From: Shigella phage SP18
Reading direction: 5' to 3' (one strand)
DNA length: 64,000 nt
Sequence record: GQ981382
The notes under the pieces: generated by a model
What the model was told of the DNA's origin: nothing
What the model saw: the letters and a program-made list of their open reading frames with translations, nothing else
The model's database searches: none
Shown here: one piece after another, positions 210 through 6,466 of the stretch
How the letters are laid out: the number at the start of each line of letters is the position of its first letter
How positions within the stretch are numbered: position 1 is the stretch's first letter
Position numbers and translations under genes: made by a program

Positions 210-437
210 TTAGCAAGACATAGAGGAGTTAAACCAGAAACCTTTACCATCTGGGATACCGTAATCACCACGAATCCAGTCATACTCTTCGTATTCTGGA
301 CAACCCGCAGGAATATATCGTTGAAGACTGTCAGCATACACATGAAAGTATTCACCAGTTTTATCGGCCAGTTGTTCACCTTCACAGATTAGTGCACGGA
401 TTTGGTCTTCAATTTCTTTAACAGTTTTAGCAGTCAT
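210..437 (-). CDS. small protein, paralog A of tandem array; C-terminus G-F-W-F-N-S-S-M-S-C
   Basis: ORF track 75 aa; C-terminal motif shared with the next three genes; AAGGAAAT RBS context. Confidence 0.6.
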   Translation of the reverse strand: MTAKTVKEIEDQIRALICEGEQLADKTGEYFHVYADSLQRYIPAGCPEYEEYDWIRGDYGIPDGKGFWFNSSMSC

Positions 438-944: not shown

Positions 945-1235
945 TTAGCACATTGCCGAAGAGGAGACCCAAGCACCAACTGTAACGACACCGTTTTCAA
1001 CTTCACCGCCGTTGTTTTCAATTTCATTTTTAAACCACTGGGAGCATTCATAACCGACAGGATAATATGTACGGCCCGAACCATAATCACCGGTACCAAA
1101 TTGGATACCATATTCATCTGCGATTTCTTCACAGTGTTTTTCAATTTCAGAGGTCTTATTTAGAAGAGAATAGATAGCTTTTTCTGCAGATTTCTCATCA
1201 TAATACTTGGGGATAGCAATTTCAATTTTATTCAT
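945..1235 (-). CDS. small protein, paralog D; C-terminus G-A-W-V-S-S-S-A-M-C
   Basis: ORF track 96 aa; EEIADEY motif plus conserved C-terminus; ATGA overlap with upstream gene. Confidence 0.6.
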   Translation of the reverse strand: MNKIEIAIPKYYDEKSAEKAIYSLLNKTSEIEKHCEEIADEYGIQFGTGDYGSGRTYYPVGYECSQWFKNEIENNGGEVENGVVTVGAWVSSSAMC

Positions 1236-1585
1236 GATTTACATTCCTTAATAAAGGTTTCAAGTTCATTGCGTTTTGTTTTGTCTAGGAACTTATTATA
1301 CTCAGCCATTGCTGAAGCATATCTCTTCCGACTAGGAGCATTCACGGCATTTGTGTGACAGATATCATACACAACAGGGATAAAATAAGACACAACAGCC
1401 GGAGCGATTATCATAAAGAAGCCCATCTCAATAGGCATCACTCCCTCGATTGCAGCCATAACCGTGGTCATTACCAGACCAACCAGGCCGCCAAGCATGG
1501 CGGTGACAATCCCTAATAATAAATTGGCACCAATATCATATTCAGCCAATTGATAAACATGTGATGCAAGACTAGGCCGTTCCAT
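1232..1585 (-). CDS. small membrane protein with two predicted transmembrane helices
   Basis: Internal ATG at complement 1583-1585 preceded by AAGGAGG; two hydrophobic stretches followed by a basic C-terminal tail. Confidence 0.55.
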   Translation of the reverse strand: MERPSLASHVYQLAEYDIGANLLLGIVTAMLGGLVGLVMTTVMAAIEGVMPIEMGFFMIIAPAVVSYFIPVVYDICHTNAVNAPSRKRYASAMAEYNKFLDKTKRNELETFIKECKS

Positions 1586-1931
1586 TACGAACCTCCTTAA
1601 TAAATTCTTCGGCGCATTTAATTTTGTGCTCTTCTTGTAGGGAAACACATTTTTGTTCCCACTCTTTAACTCGTCCACGATATCCTTTATTCATATGATT
1701 TTGATGCCACACATTTATCAATATCATACACAGGACCGTAATAAAAGGAGCTGCAATTACTAGCGTCCAGGCGACTCCAACACTAATGATATTCATATCC
1801 CCACAAAGCACCATCATTATAACCCCAACGATGCACATGGACAGAGCCCCAAATGGAGGCATAAGGTCTTTATCAATCTTGTCCGCGTACACAAATTTTT
1901 CTGGTTTACTTGGCAGATATAACGTTCGCAT
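1572..1931 (-). CDS. small membrane protein with two predicted transmembrane helices, similar architecture to the downstream gene
   Basis: ATG at complement 1929-1931 with AAAGGGG RBS; two hydrophobic segments; 14-nt overlap with next gene. Confidence 0.5.
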   Translation of the reverse strand: MRTLYLPSKPEKFVYADKIDKDLMPPFGALSMCIVGVIMMVLCGDMNIISVGVAWTLVIAAPFITVLCMILINVWHQNHMNKGYRGRVKEWEQKCVSLQEEHKIKCAEEFIKEVRNGTA

Positions 1932-2460
1932 TTTGAACCCCTTTAGCATATTCACGACATTCAGCAATAAAACGATTAAGCTTACGTTTCCGTTTACGAC
2001 TCTCTAATGTGTACTCAGCCGCCAAATCAAGAAGCTCATCTTTATCATAATTTTTAATATCAGTATAAGTTGGACGACGGTCAACCATTCCAAAGTGGTC
2101 ACCATTTTCTAACATCAAATAACATACCAAATGGTCATCATCATCCGCATTAATAAGTTGTTTATAATCGCTAGGGTCGTTTAAAGCATATACTGAATAA
2201 CTCAGCCCAGCGAATTCCACTCGTTGAATACCCAGATTTACGTCAATAATTTCCAGGGCATCTGTGAAAGAAAGGTCTTCAGCTAAAGCAAAAATAAAAG
2301 GCAATTTTGTAGTATCACCGCGGCTAGTTGTTCTTCTTAAGAAATCATTGGAATAACCCAAGTCACCGCGGATTCTATAAAGAACTGTGTTAGTTTCAGT
2401 GGCAAGACCACTACCGCCAAACCAGTCTACATTTGATAGAAGGTCAGTATATAAGCTCAT
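1906..2460 (-). CDS. hypothetical protein
   Basis: ATG at 2458-2460 with GGAGAGGAG RBS; 184 aa; preceded by GGGGGC-AAA-GCCCCC hairpin. Confidence 0.55.
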   Translation of the reverse strand: MSLYTDLLSNVDWFGGSGLATETNTVLYRIRGDLGYSNDFLRRTTSRGDTTKLPFIFALAEDLSFTDALEIIDVNLGIQRVEFAGLSYSVYALNDPSDYKQLINADDDDHLVCYLMLENGDHFGMVDRRPTYTDIKNYDKDELLDLAAEYTLESRKRKRKLNRFIAECREYAKGVQNANVISAK

Positions 2461-2478: not shown

Positions 2479-2503
2479 TTAGGGGGCAAAGCCCCCTTTT
2501 ATC
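2479..2503. terminator. intergenic hairpin GGGGGC-AAA-GCCCCC with T-run on plus side
   Basis: Perfect 6-bp GC stem between two minus-strand genes. Confidence 0.4.
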
Positions 2504-3097
2504 TTACTTAAGCGAATTGATATATTCTTCAATGTCAGCGGACGTGGTATCCACACCAACCTGTGGGCCTTTGAAGGTTTCAACACGCATCAGAGTGTCT
2601 TCAATATCAATCTTAGTCAATGCAGCGATTTCAACAACATCATCTGCGGTTGCAATACCCAGTGCAGACACCTTACGGGTTTCGCGGATGTATTCCAGTT
2701 TAACAGCTAGTTCCTGACGAGAGTCATCCAGCTCTTTAACTTTCAATTTAATTTCATTACGCATTTCAACATAATCATCTGCCTTCTTACGAAGTTGTTT
2801 AGCAGTGCGACGATACAGGAGACCCAGTTTAGCATGGACCTGGACATCTGCACCATCAGCAATCAGTTTTCGGATTTCACGCTCTTTTGAAGCGGCGAGC
2901 TGGTCTTTTTCATTCGCTAACTCGCGGATGCGTTTTTCTTCATTAACAGACTTAACGTGGGCAGTCTGGAGCTCAGTAATCTTATCAATCAGGGTAGAAG
3001 CAGCTTTAGTATATTGGTCTTCAATAGACAGGTTTTGCGCCATTGCAGTACCCAGTTTGGAGCGGATGAATTCAACAAGTTTCTTTAAAGTATTCAT
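2504..3097 (-). CDS. hypothetical coiled-coil protein
   Basis: 197-aa ORF, heptad-rich charged sequence; MotA-box type promoter upstream. Confidence 0.55.
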
Positions 3098-3496: not shown

Positions 3497-3545
3497 GTGT
3501 AACTCAGTATGGAATCATTATGCCTTAAAGCAGGGGGCTTGTATA
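3497..3545 (-). promoter_or_regulatory. sigma70-like early promoter repeat (-35 TATACA, 17 bp, -10 CATAAT, conserved leader GATTCCATACTGAGTTACAC); -35 lies in loop of the upstream terminator hairpin
   Basis: One of three near-identical 26-nt copies (3497, 4543, 41998). Confidence 0.5.
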
Positions 3546-3557
3546 CCCCCTTTTTGA
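3531..3557. terminator. hairpin GGGGG-CTTGTATA-CCCCC followed by TTTTT (plus side); overlaps early promoter -35
   Basis: GC stem plus T-run. Confidence 0.4.
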
Positions 3558-3558
3558 A

Positions 3559-4002
3559 TTAAATTTCAAATTCTTTGCGGAAGTTGGAAGCATAAGACTG
3601 AACTGATGCTTTGTTGAATCCAAACTCACGCACAATCATATCAATAACAGCCCTACGAGCGGCACCATTAGACATATTGACAGTTTTGAACATATCATAG
3701 CATAAATCTTTGTTGCTCATACCGGAGCGTTTAGGTGTCTTACGTTCAGTTTTTGGTTCAGTCTTAGGAGTAGGTTTAACTTCTGGTTTAACCTGTCCAT
3801 CATTCAGACCTTTAAAAATTTTACCTGCCAGAGTTGCCAGTTTAGCAGCTTCGCCACGAGTGATACCAAATACTGCCGGGTTAAATGAAATACCTTCAGC
3901 TGTCAGACGTTTAAAGAACATACGTGCGGCGGATTGTGCTTCAGCTTCAGAAGAGTTGTTTAATGCCAGTTTAACATACTTAACCAGTTTTGAAGTTTTC
4001 AT
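3559..4002 (-). CDS. hypothetical protein sharing a C-terminal domain (AARRAxID...VQSYASNFRK) with the upstream paralog
   Basis: Internal ATG at 4000-4002; C-terminal 45 aa alignable with gene 4086-4511. Confidence 0.55.
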   Translation of the reverse strand: MKTSKLVKYVKLALNNSSEAEAQSAARMFFKRLTAEGISFNPAVFGITRGEAAKLATLAGKIFKGLNDGQVKPEVKPTPKTEPKTERKTPKRSGMSNKDLCYDMFKTVNMSNGAARRAVIDMIVREFGFNKASVQSYASNFRKEFEI

Positions 4003-4037
4003 TTTATTATCCCGTTTGTTTATTTGGTAACTCAATA

Positions 4038-4073
4038 TGGGATAATTATACACTATCCCACCTGGAAGTAAAA
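4038..4073 (-). promoter_or_regulatory. early promoter variant with -10 TATAAT in loop of inverted repeat TGGGATA/TATCCCA; -35 TTTTAC
   Basis: Related to the TATCCCAT promoter family; upstream of gene 3559-4002. Confidence 0.45.
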
Positions 4074-4085
4074 CACTTTTCTCAA

Positions 4086-4511
4086 TTATTTTTGAGCTTT
4101 GCGGAAGTTGGATGCATATGACTGAACAACAGTCTTTTTGATATCATGGGTGGTAACCAGAACATCAATCAGAGCGCGACGAGCTGCATTATCATTCATA
4201 TCAATTTCTGAAAATGCCTGGAAGCAAATGTCACGAGCGTTACCAGATTTGGACTGGATTTTTTCTTCTTTAACTTCTTCAATTGGGAATTCAATCATTT
4301 CAGCTTGGATTAATTCAATGATAGATTCTTTTGACTGTTTGGTGTTTACCTTCAGTTCAGAATTAAGGGACTTGGCGATGGCAACAATCTGGGTTGAAGT
4401 CAGATGAATAAGTGCATCTTCACGAATGCAGATTTCACATACTTCGTCAGCAACCATTTTGTTGGTGATGCGGGTAACAGAGAATGCAGAGGTCAGGGTC
4501 AGGAAGTTCAT
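4086..4511 (-). CDS. hypothetical protein, paralog of 3559-4002
   Basis: ATG at 4509-4511 with GGAG RBS; C-terminal ...NAARRALIDVLV...VVQSYASNFRK. Confidence 0.55.
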   Translation of the reverse strand: MNFLTLTSAFSVTRITNKMVADEVCEICIREDALIHLTSTQIVAIAKSLNSELKVNTKQSKESIIELIQAEMIEFPIEEVKEEKIQSKSGNARDICFQAFSEIDMNDNAARRALIDVLVTTHDIKKTVVQSYASNFRKAQK

Positions 4512-4542
4512 TTTATTTCTCCAAAGTTTTGTTTGATTCAGT

Positions 4543-4591
4543 GTGTAACTCAGTATGGAATCATTATGCACCCGGTCAATTCGGATGTACA
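4543..4591 (-). promoter_or_regulatory. sigma70-like early promoter repeat (-35 TGTACA, 17 bp, -10 CATAAT, conserved leader)
   Basis: Immediately downstream of minus-strand terminator and upstream of gene 4086-4511. Confidence 0.5.
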
Positions 4592-4630
4592 CTACTTTTT
4601 GAAGAAAATTTCAAATTTATTCGGGGTATA

Positions 4631-4659
4631 AAAAAAGCCCCAACCTTTCGGAAGGGGCT
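4631..4659 (-). terminator. rho-independent terminator (AGCCCC-loop-GGGGCT then U7 on minus strand) downstream of tRNA region
   Basis: Stem 4636-4641/4654-4659, A-run 4631-4636 on plus. Confidence 0.6.
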
Positions 4660-4660
4660 A

Positions 4661-4860
4661 TACCTTGTCGGGGTTCCACCTGCAAGGCAAGTGTTTGTAC
4701 GAAACGCCGGGATTCGAACCCGGTTATTAAGCAGTTGACGCTACTCAATATTTTTAAAAGGCCATATCTCGACCATATCCGAACGTTCCGTCAAAAACGC
4801 TACTCGGCTTACGGCAAAGATATTTCCTCGAATCGATAATTCGGTGCGCCGTTTCAGCTG
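4661..4860 (-). ncRNA. candidate stable RNA with a perfect tRNA-like T-arm (CCGGG-TTCGAAT-CCCGG) that does not fold as a canonical tRNA
   Basis: No ORF over about 300 nt between tRNA cluster and terminator; T-arm at complement 4704-4720; possible acceptor-like pairing CGGAACG/CGTTTCG. Confidence 0.3.
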
Positions 4861-5944: not shown

Positions 5945-6063
5945 TATTCACCTTTAGAGATTTTATCCATAACGAAAGAGATTGAACCAATTAAAAATGC
6001 AACTACTAAAGAGATTATATTCTCAGAAGTTGAAAGCATATTCAACATAAAGCCAGCAAACAT
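5944..6063 (-). CDS. small hydrophobic peptide (39 aa), possibly the 3' part of a gene split by a frameshift from the 21-aa ORF at 6065-6130
   Basis: ATG at 6061-6063 without RBS; upstream tiny ORF 6065-6130 has a strong GAGGAG RBS and ends in a T-run. Confidence 0.3.
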   Translation of the reverse strand: MFAGFMLNMLSTSENIISLVVAFLIGSISFVMDKISKGE

Positions 6064-6150
6064 GCTAAAACCAAAAAGCGGTAACAGCAACAAGGGCAGT
6101 AACATTTCTAATTAATTCGCAACGTTTCATTTTATTCTCCTCAGTAGTTG

Positions 6151-6187
6151 ATGGGATAATCATACTACAGTTATCCCATCACGTACA
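6151..6187 (-). promoter_or_regulatory. early promoter variant: -35 TGTACG, 17 bp, -10 TATGAT inside inverted repeat GATGGGATAA/TTATCCCATC
   Basis: Near-duplicate of element at 6484-6521. Confidence 0.45.
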
Positions 6188-6466
6188 CTAAATTTTTGTA
6201 TATTGTCCAGCTTTAACTTTTTTCAGTTCACGAGGGCTTACCGCGTAAGTGAATGGAGCATTCCAGGAAGAACTGACTTTGTAACCTTTAGTCAACATCA
6301 TTGCTGAAACTTTCTTGTTATCAGGACCGTTTTCGCCTTTAACAAGAAACAACTCAAATGCGCCACCATCAACCGGTTTGGCCTTAACCATCAGATATCC
6401 TTTCAGGTCTTCCAGCATATCCGGGTGACTAATTGATTCGTTAATAAATTCTTGATAAGTTTTCAT
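6188..6466 (-). CDS. internal protein (IP) family member with capsid-targeting N-terminus MKTYQEFINE
   Basis: N-terminal 10 aa matches the T4 IP capsid targeting sequence; promoter with TATAAT in hairpin loop upstream. Confidence 0.7.
   Translation of the reverse strand: MKTYQEFINESISHPDMLEDLKGYLMVKAKPVDGGAFELFLVKGENGPDNKKVSAMMLTKGYKVSSSWNAPFTYAVSPRELKKVKAGQYTKI

Follow-up and report, generated by a model that had tools for sequence, protein, structure and literature searches.

Identity of the two overlapping genes

Do two small membrane proteins encoded side by side in a T4-like phage exclude other phages, time lysis, or do something else? We address this question for a gene pair in Shigella phage SP18 (record GQ981382), of which a stretch of 64,000 nucleotides, called the window below, was analysed. 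A preliminary description had reported two genes of 117 and 119 aa at 1232-1585 and 1572-1931 with an overlap of 14 nt, and these coordinates were verified on the sequence. It gave neither the minus strand of the genes nor their match to e.3 and e.4, which have been known in T4 for decades. The locus comprises the following features.

1232-1585, minus strand: e.3-like gene, ATG at 1585-1583, stop codon TGA at 1234-1232, 117 aa
1572-1931, minus strand: e.4-like gene, ATG at 1931-1929, stop codon TAG at 1574-1572, 119 aa
1572-1598, minus strand: e.4/e.3 junction as read from the sequence, with the 14-nt overlap (1572-1585) and the e.3 Shine-Dalgarno sequence
1906-2460, minus strand: e.5 orthologue (old name msp4), 184 aa, soluble, matching PHROG 8788 at E=7e-112
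2481-2497, no strand: G+C-rich stem-loop AGGGGGCAAAGCCCCCT between e.6 and e.5, with no U-run on the coding strand
2504-3097, minus strand: e.6 orthologue (old name msp3), 197 aa, matching PHROG 1203 at E=4e-84, first gene of the e.6-e.5-e.4-e.3 block

Each of the two genes has a strong Shine-Dalgarno sequence 6 bases before its ATG, namely AAGGAGG at 1592-1598 for e.3, which lies inside the e.4 codons for K-E-V, and AAAGGGG at 1938-1944 for e.4. The frames also overlap on both outer sides, by 26 nt between e.4 and the upstream gene e.5 and by 4 nt (ATGA) between e.3 and the downstream gene at 945-1235. An alternative in-frame start of e.4, the ATG at 1949 that is used by two database entries and yields 125 aa, is without a Shine-Dalgarno sequence. 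Pairwise dN/dS values among Gaprivervirus and Dhakavirus orthologues are 0.03-0.24 for e.3 and 0.04-0.19 for e.4. Searches with the window proteins recover near-full-length homologues from 283 (e.3) and 461 (e.4) phage records, and searches with the T4 proteins from 608 and 670. By these values and counts, both reading frames are genuine genes, beyond chance ORFs.

The two genes are almost certainly the orthologues of T4 e.3 and e.4. The e.3 protein matches PHROG 2330 at E=8.2e-46, its residues 1-117 covering positions 1-122 of the 122 in the profile (T4 e.3 itself gives 2.9e-57), and e.4 matches PHROG 2604 over its full length at E=2.3e-45. The Pfam family PF26873 (PF26873.1) is precomputed on e.4 relatives that are 76-95% identical, and the family link runs via those relatives. 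By phmmer the window e.3 matches e.3 of T4 and RB69; the name e.3 is annotated in the VR7 and vB_EcoM_RZ records, and e.4 in VR7, RB69 and T4. The window DNA shares 99.9% identity with Escherichia phage 212 and 92-98% with the remaining Gaprivervirus genomes listed, and the source phage is a Gaprivervirus, a T4-like coliphage. The gene order e.6-e.5-e.4-e.3 is common to the window, T4, RB69 and VR7; e.3 lies directly downstream of, and overlaps, e.4 or e.5 in the e-segB region of T4, RB69, VR7, RZ, JS10 and WG01, and the overlap of e.4 with the 3' end of e.5 is found in the window, T4, RB69 and KP182.

In T4, e.3 (UniProt P32274, old name msp6, PHROG 2330) and e.4 (UniProt P39222, old name msp5, PHROG 2604, Pfam PF26873) are each described as a 'conserved hypothetical, predicted membrane protein'; both have long been catalogued as uncharacterised genes. 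The window genes resemble them in their equal length, the plan of two helices plus tail, the gene order, the overlapping frames and the full-length profile matches. They differ in that the proteins are only 20-33% identical to those of T4 and RB69, that the e.4/e.3 overlap measures 14 nt, whereas it is 19 nt long in T4 and 22 nt long in RB69, that the e.4 start is displaced by a few codons, and that e.3 is followed by a set of four small soluble paralogues instead of e.2. The pair is not obligatory. The Dhakaviruses JS10 and WG01 carry e.3 alone after e.5, the Jiaodavirus KP182 has e.4 without e.3, together with unrelated-looking small membrane genes, and in VR7 e.3 is accompanied by an N-truncated e.4, with no intact e.5.

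A full-text literature search with gene names, accessions and family numbers returned no paper discussing the function of e.3 or e.4. Scans of e.3, e.4, e.5, e.6 and the downstream gene against Pfam, NCBIfam and PADLOC gave nothing above threshold, and in PADLOC-DB, which holds defence systems only and no phage counter-defence genes, e.3, e.4 and e.5 had no match at E<=1. When 1.84 billion representative proteins were searched exhaustively with e.4 by phmmer, the search recovered its own cluster and three other T-even clusters, so that no bacterial or distant relative lends it a function; the remaining two matches, a K/E-rich repeat protein and a protein of 1447 aa, were judged spurious.

Neighbourhood and expression

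The block belongs to the classical 'e-segB' region of T4. Within it, e.6 is conserved far above e.5, e.4 and e.3, with 67-95% identity across genera in the alignment. A PspA/IM30-like identity of this 197-aa helical protein was considered and found no support: Pfam gave no match of this kind, and the best hit in a profile search of PDB sequences was to DARPins at E=0.24. The T4 record L13089 annotates a stem-loop at the place equivalent to that between e.6 and e.5, and promoters solely upstream of msp1-msp3 (e.8-e.6). A promoter scan upstream of the window e.6 found nothing that clearly corresponds to the early promoter of T4. The overlapping frames of e.5, e.4 and e.3, together with the promoter positions in L13089, support co-expression. 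That no endolysin gene is adjacent, as first stated, holds within the window. In relatives of almost identical sequence the lysozyme gene e is found, with the same orientation, about 3 kb beyond the left end of the window.

According to the supplement of PMC9697503, T4 e.4 has early RNA and early protein, and T4 e.3 early RNA and a protein of the late class. The assignment to an early region thus agrees with the RNA of both T4 orthologues, and the assigned kinetic classes mean that both have been detected as proteins. In the supplement of PMC11879866, CRISPRi-ART knock-down of T4 e.3 and e.4 is scored 'Not Fit', which we read as no fitness cost. Transposon insertions are listed at 37 of 37 sites of T4 e.3 and at 42 of 43 sites of e.4, and both genes are classed as non-essential, in the supplement of bioRxiv 10.1101/2025.11.20.689424; among the conditional hits given in the text of the same preprint (RexAB, RnlAB, CBASS, DarTG1, DarTG2, minimal medium) there is no gene of the e region, and one of its comparison tables gives e.3, e.4 and e.5 as not significant. 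The e.5-e.4-e.3 string of T4 is transcribed early and dispensable on E. coli K-12.

Membrane architecture

The two proteins are laid out as follows, with the hydrophobic segments taken from Kyte-Doolittle hydropathy averaged over 19 residues.

e.3 protein, minus strand, 117 aa: short N-terminus, TM1 at about 19-46, acidic turn IEGVMPIEM, TM2 at about 54-76, basic tail ending in FIKECKS
e.4 protein, minus strand, 119 aa: K/R-rich N-terminus with conserved LPSKP, TM1 at about 25-45, turn of about 5 residues, TM2 at about 48-76, tail helix ending in EEFIKEVRNGTA

In both, the loop between the helices is very short, acidic and free of K and R, and the net charge over the 16 residues past the second helix is +3. 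The tail of e.3 has 9 K/R against 5 D/E, and that of e.4 has 9 K/R against 7 D/E. An AF2 model of e.4, of low confidence (mean pLDDT 60.7), gives a helix at 14-45, a turn at 46-50 and a helix at 51-115, the second helix of the hairpin running on into the tail. Foldseek with this model found nothing in the PDB at E<=0.001 and a sole match in BFVD, the orthologue of phage HY01; holins appear at E of about 6, a value that comes from the same low-confidence model. Hydropathy, charge counts and AF2 secondary structure thus bear out the view that these are small two-helix membrane proteins with charged tails, and e.3 and e.4 are each a two-helix hairpin with a basic helical tail of about 40 residues. 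The TM1 of e.3 is glycine-rich (GxxxxxxGGxxG).

Judging from the charge distribution, the N- and C-termini of both proteins are predicted to be cytoplasmic. In the respective alignments the invariant residues are P4, N82, K87, Y89, Y96, N97, F111 and C115 for e.3 and P7, S8, P10, R87, W91, C95, F110, K112, E113 and R115 for e.4, so the most conserved residues lie in the parts predicted to face the cytoplasm, the N-terminus and the tail.

A C-terminal motif common to e.3, e.4 and e.5

The tails of e.3 and e.4 carry a motif, F-[IV]-x-[ED]-C-[RK] or in its wider form F-[I/V]-x-[E/D]-[C/V/S]-[R/K], that is also present in the soluble e.5.

1238-1255, minus strand: e.3 tail motif F-I-K-E-C-K (TTTATTAAGGAATGTAAA), overlapping the ribosome-binding region of the next gene; F111 and C115 invariant
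1587-1604, minus strand: e.4 tail motif F-I-K-E-V-R; F110, K112, E113 and R115 invariant
1954-1971, minus strand: e.5 tail motif F-I-A-E-C-R-E-Y, near the e.5 C-terminus

Among all ORFs of the 64-kb window the motif, written as a regular expression after viewing the sequences, occurs 3 times, at the ends of e.5, e.4 and e.3; shuffles gave a mean of 0.12 occurrences, with 0 of 1000 reaching 3, and the tail similarities span 20-40 columns. It also stands at the end of RB69ORF133c, of full-length e.2 and, in Klebsiella phage KP182, of the small membrane proteins encoded after e.4. Hydropathy finds no hydrophobic segment in the window e.5, and in its alignment with e.5 of T4, RB69 and KP182 the only invariant internal residues are F164, C168, R169 and E170; an AF2 model of e.5 from a 24-sequence alignment was unusable (pLDDT 41).

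The codons of the motif vary synonymously, with CGT, AGA, AGG and CGC for R, TGT and TGC for C, and TTT and TTC for F. In the window e.5 the motif is kept though its embedded Shine-Dalgarno sequence is lost (AAG to GCT), the real one being 20 nt downstream. This pattern supports a constraint that would act at the protein level. In most cases the motif extends over the region where translation of the following gene is initiated, so some of the conservation could be at the RNA level.

Paralogy and wider family

Sequence comparison shows e.3 and e.4 to be tandem, distant paralogues with about 20% identity. They match each other by blastp at E=1e-5, by reciprocal PHROG cross-matches at about 1e-3, and by hhalign with a probability of 93.8% (E=1.7e-7), and an N-terminal M-x-[KR]-P-x-L motif is common to the two families in addition to the C-terminal one. 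Full-length e.2 (PHROG 2203, 'membrane protein'; RB69, VR7) resembles them in its C-terminal half, made of two hydrophobic helices, a basic helix and a terminal F-I-x-E-C-R-K; it differs by a soluble domain of about 75 residues at the N-terminus that e.3 and e.4 are without. To this two-helix-plus-tail half e.3, RB69ORF133c and the 98-aa protein of KP182 match at 5e-4 to 8e-3, e.3 at 4.9e-4 with a similarity that is short and weak. A merged e.3/e.4 HMM run on 460 ORFs picks out ORF133c (1.2e-5) and the KP182 98-aa protein (1.3e-3). By hhalign, e.3 reaches 86.7% (E=4e-6) against e.2 and 66% (E=6e-5) against e.5, and e.4 against e.2 is not significant. The e.3/e.4 family is small and confined to T-even phages of enterobacteria.

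Possible functions of the pair

The best explanation as a whole, to which we give a probability of roughly one half, is that the two e.3/e.4 orthologues are anchors presenting a common cytoplasmic tail. The transmembrane hairpin would be mainly an anchor, and the working part would be the cytoplasmic tail with the conserved N-terminus, because the tail is conserved and its motif also closes e.5, the e.2 half, ORF133c and the KP182 proteins. A common helix would in this way be placed on the cytoplasmic side of the inner membrane. Since the conserved tail and motif recur in the soluble e.5 and in other proteins, assembly or recruitment through this helix would be the likeliest mechanism, which we hold as tentative: e.3 and e.4 may assemble with one another and e.5, or may have a single binding partner in common, and may so serve an accessory, host-dependent early function, e.g. 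membrane-level host takeover, exclusion or counter-defence. The different kinetic classes of the T4 proteins make a strict 1:1 complex a poor fit, and the phages with e.3 or e.4 alone (JS10, WG01; KP182) and VR7 also speak against an obligatory pair. The low confidence of the e.4 model, the shortness of the tail similarities, the non-significant comparison of e.4 with e.2 and the lack of e-region genes among the conditional hits likewise count against this explanation.

The superinfection-exclusion, immunity and lysis-timing families to which the pair had initially been compared showed no link to it in our searches. Exclusion in the manner of T4 Imm, where the two early inner-membrane proteins would alter the membrane at the site of DNA injection and block the DNA of later phages, is improbable. 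It has in its favour that T4 Imm, of 83 aa, is likewise a small protein of the inner membrane that has two hydrophobic helices, is made early and is dispensable, that the dispensability of e.3 and e.4 comes from single-infection screens, which are blind to an exclusion phenotype, and that a variable region diversified in copy number and sequence across genera is expected for genes of inter-phage competition. However, Imm has a short tail without the conserved 40-residue helix and motif, and no sequence relationship was found: the e.3/e.4 profiles score 0.8-9.2 bits against T4 Imm in hmmsearch with hhalign probabilities of 2.4-9.4%, the Imm family in Pfam has no match at E<=1, and PHROGs gave no Imm or Sp match. 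T4 Sp (spackle), with a signal peptide and a soluble periplasmic domain, is unlike two transmembrane helices with a tail predicted to be cytoplasmic, and hhalign gives a probability of <=1.1%. SieB (PF14163) reaches 12.3 bits against a Pfam cut-off of 26 (E=0.13), and its likeness, as that of VirB3/DUF3487 and MotA-ExbB, consists of generic hydrophobic segments only; the latter two labels, taken from record PQ341120, were rejected, DUF3487 scoring 14.6 bits against 27.8 and MotA/ExbB having no Pfam match at E<=1. In addition, superinfecting phages act periplasmically, where few e.3/e.4 residues are exposed, whereas the conservation lies in the predicted cytoplasmic tail; a conserved cytoplasmic N-terminus and tail with a periplasmic loop of a few residues argue against Sp-like or rI-like periplasmic action, and T4 already has imm and sp. 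Less probable still is a holin/antiholin-like or lysis-timing pair of class II holin or pinholin topology, encoded upstream of lysozyme gene e. Proteins of this class, such as S21 of phage 21, have two transmembrane helices, cytoplasmic termini and a charged C-terminal tail, and e.3 and e.4 match this architecture in their predicted topology; they share strand and region with e, the glycine-rich TM1 of e.3 is as in oligomerising helices, and a neighbouring e.2-like gene is called 'holin' in one automated annotation. Yet class II holins are expressed late and linked to an endolysin, while e.3 and e.4 are about 50 residues longer, are transcribed early in T4 and lie about 4 kb and more than 10 genes away from e. 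The T4 holin is the product of gene t, and t or e mutants fail to lyse, so that by established T4 genetics no second functional holin is known at native expression. The antiholin rI has a single N-terminal membrane or signal-anchor segment and binds holin T through a C-terminal domain in the periplasm, unlike two hydrophobic helices with a K/R-rich tail predicted to be cytoplasmic; the comparison with rI relies on this architecture and on the missing match to it in Pfam and PHROGs, which also hold no holin family match at E<=1. The late accumulation of T4 e.3 protein (PMC9697503 supplement) would suit lysis timing, but knock-down or insertion has no fitness effect.

Alternatively, e.3 and e.4 could be independent small membrane proteins whose overlap is ordinary T4 gene packing and whose motif is a duplication footprint kept by RNA-level constraint at the junctions, which would double as short homologies for the gain and loss of cassettes. 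At most junctions the K-E or C-R codons indeed supply the next Shine-Dalgarno sequence (AAGGAG, AAGGAA or GCAGGAAA), the N-terminal M-x-K-P-x-L motif stands directly past the junction, the patterns of presence and absence (e.5 to e.3 in Dhakavirus; e.5 to e.4 to other genes in Jiaodavirus) resemble recombination at repeated junctions, and e.3 and e.4 have no known phenotype. We nevertheless consider this unlikely, as the motif survives synonymous substitutions and variation at its x position, persists in the window e.5 with its embedded Shine-Dalgarno sequence destroyed, and is missing at every other gene end in the 64-kb window, though embedded ribosome-binding sites occur there too; purifying selection moreover extends over the whole of both proteins.

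Implications

Even in T4, the virulent phage that has been studied best, many genes have no assigned function, the entire e.2-e.8 block among them. New here are the distant paralogy of e.3 and e.4, the conservation predicted to face the cytoplasm, and the C-terminal motif common to e.5, e.2 and others, which together may join what were separate 'hypothetical membrane proteins' in a module that can be tested, with the tail Cys and Phe as obvious targets for mutation and partners to seek. Going beyond the reading of tail-presenting anchors, the C-terminal half of e.2, e.3, e.4, the RB69ORF133c-type proteins and the soluble e.5 might form one tail-defined module, an idea we regard as doubtful: the shared cytoplasmic F-I-x-E-C-R helix would join several diversifying two-helix anchors and one soluble subunit in a complex of the inner membrane, formed early and peculiar to T-even phages of enterobacteria. 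If so, the module would have a host- or competitor-specific role, e.g. neutralising a membrane-acting abortive-infection effector or excluding rivals, that would be invisible on E. coli K-12.

Identification of the gene pair

At this end of the window all genes run on the minus strand, and two overlapping open reading frames of 117 and 119 aa are found among them.

Features of the variable region
210-437, minus strand, small gene 4 after e.3, 75 aa
447-644, minus strand, small gene 3 after e.3, 65 aa
654-935, minus strand, small gene 2 after e.3, 93 aa
945-1235, minus strand, small gene 1 after e.3, 96 aa (PHROG 899, E=5e-23)
1232-1585, minus strand, e.3-like ORF, 117 aa
1572-1931, minus strand, e.4-like ORF, 119 aa
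1906-2460, minus strand, e.5 orthologue, upstream of the pair
2504-3097, minus strand, e.6 orthologue, upstream of the pair
3559-4053, minus strand, adjacent variable-region gene, 164 aa
4086-4592, minus strand, adjacent variable-region gene, 168 aa
5216-5449, minus strand, three tRNA genes: Arg (TCT), Asn (GTT), Met (CAT)

The coordinates, lengths and 14-nt overlap claimed in the preliminary description match the sequence exactly. Both starts have a strong Shine-Dalgarno sequence six bases before the ATG, AAGGAGG for e.3 and AAAGGGG for e.4. The two hydrophobic segments and charged tail claimed for each protein are likewise borne out: the segments span about 19-46 and 54-76 in the 117-aa protein and 25-45 and 48-76 in the 119-aa protein, with few residues between, and the last 40 or so residues of both form a K/R-rich tail. 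Near-full-length homologues are carried by hundreds of phage genomes, with dN/dS of 0.03-0.24 between orthologue pairs, and both are real genes. The 117-aa protein matches PHROG 2330 (E=8e-46) and the 119-aa protein PHROG 2604 (E=2e-45), while relatives of the latter are assigned to the precomputed Pfam family PF26873; the genes are almost certainly orthologues of T4 e.3 and e.4. Deposited proteins match them at 99-100% identity, and the pair is already catalogued in the T4 family, with its function uncharacterised. Escherichia phage 212 is 99.9% identical to the window over 1.5 kb, and the other listed Gaprivervirus members (Straboviridae, Tevenvirinae) are 92-98% identical. An in-frame ATG at 1949 (window 1932-1949) offers an alternative e.4 start giving 125 aa; it is the positional counterpart of the T4 start and is used by two database entries (P0001 and P0002), its Shine-Dalgarno is lost in the window (AAGGAA to GCTGAA), and a new one serves the ATG at 1931.

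The block is the classical T4 'e-segB' region; near-identical relatives carry the lysozyme gene e on the same strand as these genes, about 3 kb past the window's left edge. In a 1993 T4 record e.3 and e.4 are named msp6 and msp5; its promoter annotations are confined to sites upstream of msp1-msp3 (e.8-e.6), and it marks a stem-loop after msp3, corresponding to that at window 2481-2497. Near-identical G+C-rich hairpins (AGGGGGC...GCCCCCT) occur at 2481-2497 and 3532-3551, in intergenic gaps between minus-strand genes. T4 has one such stem-loop annotated, in the e.6/e.5 gap. Only on the plus, non-coding strand are the window's hairpins followed by a T-run; read on the coding strand, they would form stable stem-loops between cistrons.

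Paralogy and the shared tail

By our comparison e.3 and e.4 are distant paralogues, tandemly duplicated. They align by blastp at E=1e-5 across 84 residues, their PHROG profiles cross-match reciprocally at about 1e-3, and hhalign gives a probability of 93.8% (E=1.7e-7). The joint alignment has a common N-terminal motif M-x-[KR]-P-x-L and a common C-terminal motif F-[IV]-K-E-x-[RK]; in both families the residues that never vary are at the N-terminus and in the tail, the membrane helices and loop being variable. Since K and R are absent from the loops between the helices, and the net charge of the 16 residues past the second helix is +3, both proteins probably form hairpins with cytoplasmic N- and C-termini, and by this prediction the conserved part would be cytoplasmic. 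The AlphaFold2 model of the 119-aa protein, of low confidence (mean pLDDT 60.7), has helix 14-45, turn 46-50 and a single helix 51-115, which suggests that the second membrane helix continues straight into the tail.

A similar end is found in other proteins of the block. The soluble e.5 protein ends in F-I-x-E-C-R-E-Y, the sole invariant internal block of a family elsewhere about 20% identical. In full-length e.2 (RB69, VR7, RZ, PYps47T) two membrane helices follow a soluble N-domain and lead to a basic helix terminating in F-I-[TE]-E-C-R-K; this helix/tail plan recurs in RB69ORF133c (101 aa) and in the product of a 98-aa gene after e.4 in phage KP182 of Klebsiella. Independent profiles agree: e.3, ORF133c and the KP182 protein match PHROG 2203, the e.2 family, in the half that holds the two helices and tail, at 5e-4 to 8e-3, and a merged e.3/e.4 HMM retrieves ORF133c at 1.2e-5. 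By hhalign, e.3 reaches 86.7% with e.2 and 66% with e.5, and the e.4/e.2 comparison falls short of significance. Across all 64 kb of the window the tail motif F-[IV]-x-[ED]-[C/V/S]-[RK] occurs three times, at the ends of e.5, e.4 and e.3, against a mean of 0.12 in shuffled controls (0/1000 reached three); as the motif was defined post hoc, this is only indicative of its being specific to the block.

Distribution and neighbouring genes

An exhaustive HMMER search of 1.84 billion representative proteins yields no genuine e.4 clusters beyond four, each of them T-even in type. By tblastn nearly all occurrences of the two genes are in phages that infect Escherichia, Shigella, Yersinia, Salmonella and Citrobacter, with e.4 also in Klebsiella and Raoultella phages; a handful of records bear other names. 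Not every phage has the complete pair: in Dhakavirus (JS10, WG01) e.3 comes immediately after e.5, in Jiaodavirus (KP182) e.5 and e.4 are succeeded by other genes for small membrane proteins, and VR7 has an N-truncated e.4 without an intact e.5. For the two Dhakavirus loci e.3 alone is confirmed, a syntenic 'membrane protein' gene being cut by the locus end. In fully examined loci, tail-family members number 2 plus a frameshifted e.2 in T4, 3 in PYps47T, 3 in RZ-type Gaprivervirus, 4 in RB69 and 2-3 in KP182. T4 e.2 (102 aa; KJ477684, 5722-6030) looks frameshift-truncated beside the 162-195-aa e.2 elsewhere in T-even phages (as at 4360-4848 of comparison locus L010); its remnant is a separate 63-codon ORF (6018-6209; 'orf 63aa' in X57093), still encoding the second membrane helix and a tail ending NNFITECRKLK.

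Where T4 has e.2 after e.3, the window has four tandem small genes (210-1235), immediately downstream of e.3. These are paralogues of 20-27% identity sharing an invariant C-terminus, G-x-W-[VF]-[SN]-S-S-x-x-C then stop, and the family also follows e.3 in RB69, JS10 and WG01. The genes at 3559-4053 and 4086-4592 have nearly the same C-terminal segment (...N-x-A-A-R-R-A-[VL]-I-D-...-V-Q-S-Y-A-S-N-F-R-K) and probably represent a further tandem duplication. At the place that corresponds to the three-tRNA cluster, T4 carries eight tRNA genes. The e.6 protein (197 aa, all-helical-looking, without a match in family and PDB sequence searches) keeps 67-95% identity across five genera, against 20-33% for the neighbouring e.5, e.4 and e.3; such conservation is unusually strong for a dispensable gene. 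In phage EAWsc9 (PQ341120, 5993-8461), the automated product names, among them 'VirB3', 'MotA-ExbB domain', 'ubiquitinyl hydrolase 1', 'malate synthase', 'transposase' and 'holin' are unsupported by Pfam scans, and could misdirect similarity-based annotation.

Possible roles

In T4, the supplementary tables of PMC9697503 class e.4 as early in RNA and protein, and e.3 as early in RNA and late in protein, so both proteins were evidently detected. The PMC11879866 supplement scores CRISPRi-ART knock-down of e.2-e.8 as 'Not Fit', which we read as no fitness cost. The supplement of bioRxiv 10.1101/2025.11.20.689424 lists e.2-e.8 as non-essential by transposon sequencing, with insertions at 37/37 sites in e.3 and 42/43 in e.4; its text includes no e-region gene among conditional hits against RexAB, RnlAB, CBASS, DarTG1, DarTG2 or minimal medium, and e.3, e.4 and e.5 are non-significant in one of its comparison tables. 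Our full-text literature search found no discussion of e.3/e.4 function. The two are early genes that T4 can do without, a tandem duplicate pair encoding two-helix proteins whose tail is conserved.

The preliminary description, sound as to the genes, took them as candidates for exclusion, immunity or lysis timing, and this interpretation is only partly supported. Pfam scans give noise (SieB 12.3 bits against a threshold of 26; DUF3487 14.6 against 27.8), and nothing related to Imm, Sp, rI, holins or defence is matched in PHROGs, NCBIfam or PADLOC. The T4 Imm and Sp sequences, compared directly with the e.3 and e.4 family profiles as had been proposed, score at most 9.2 bits (hhalign probability at most 9.4%). 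The pair thus does not belong to those families, and an Imm-like exclusion role, which also fits poorly with cytoplasmic conservation, is improbable. A holin-like or lysis-timing role agrees with the topology but not with timing, linkage or T4 genetics, and is the least probable of all. Somewhat more probable than either, though still unlikely, is that the proteins have no common mechanism, the motif being a footprint of duplication and of ribosome-binding sites: in most junctions its K-E or C-R codons also supply the Shine-Dalgarno for the overlapping gene that comes next. However, the motif is kept despite synonymous codon changes and a variable x position, and persists in the window's e.5 though the embedded Shine-Dalgarno is gone, showing that at least part of the constraint is on the protein.

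The most economical mechanism, to which we give a probability of roughly 0.4, is assembly or recruitment through the tails, as the same short helix closes e.5, which is soluble, and also e.2 and ORF133c, which are membrane proteins. The hairpin would be the anchor and the tail the functional surface; on the cytoplasmic side of the inner membrane the tails would assemble with each other, or recruit a single shared partner, in an accessory, host-dependent role. What is new here, the paralogy of e.3 and e.4 and the shared, predicted cytoplasmic tail motif, defines a small family and a concrete experiment.
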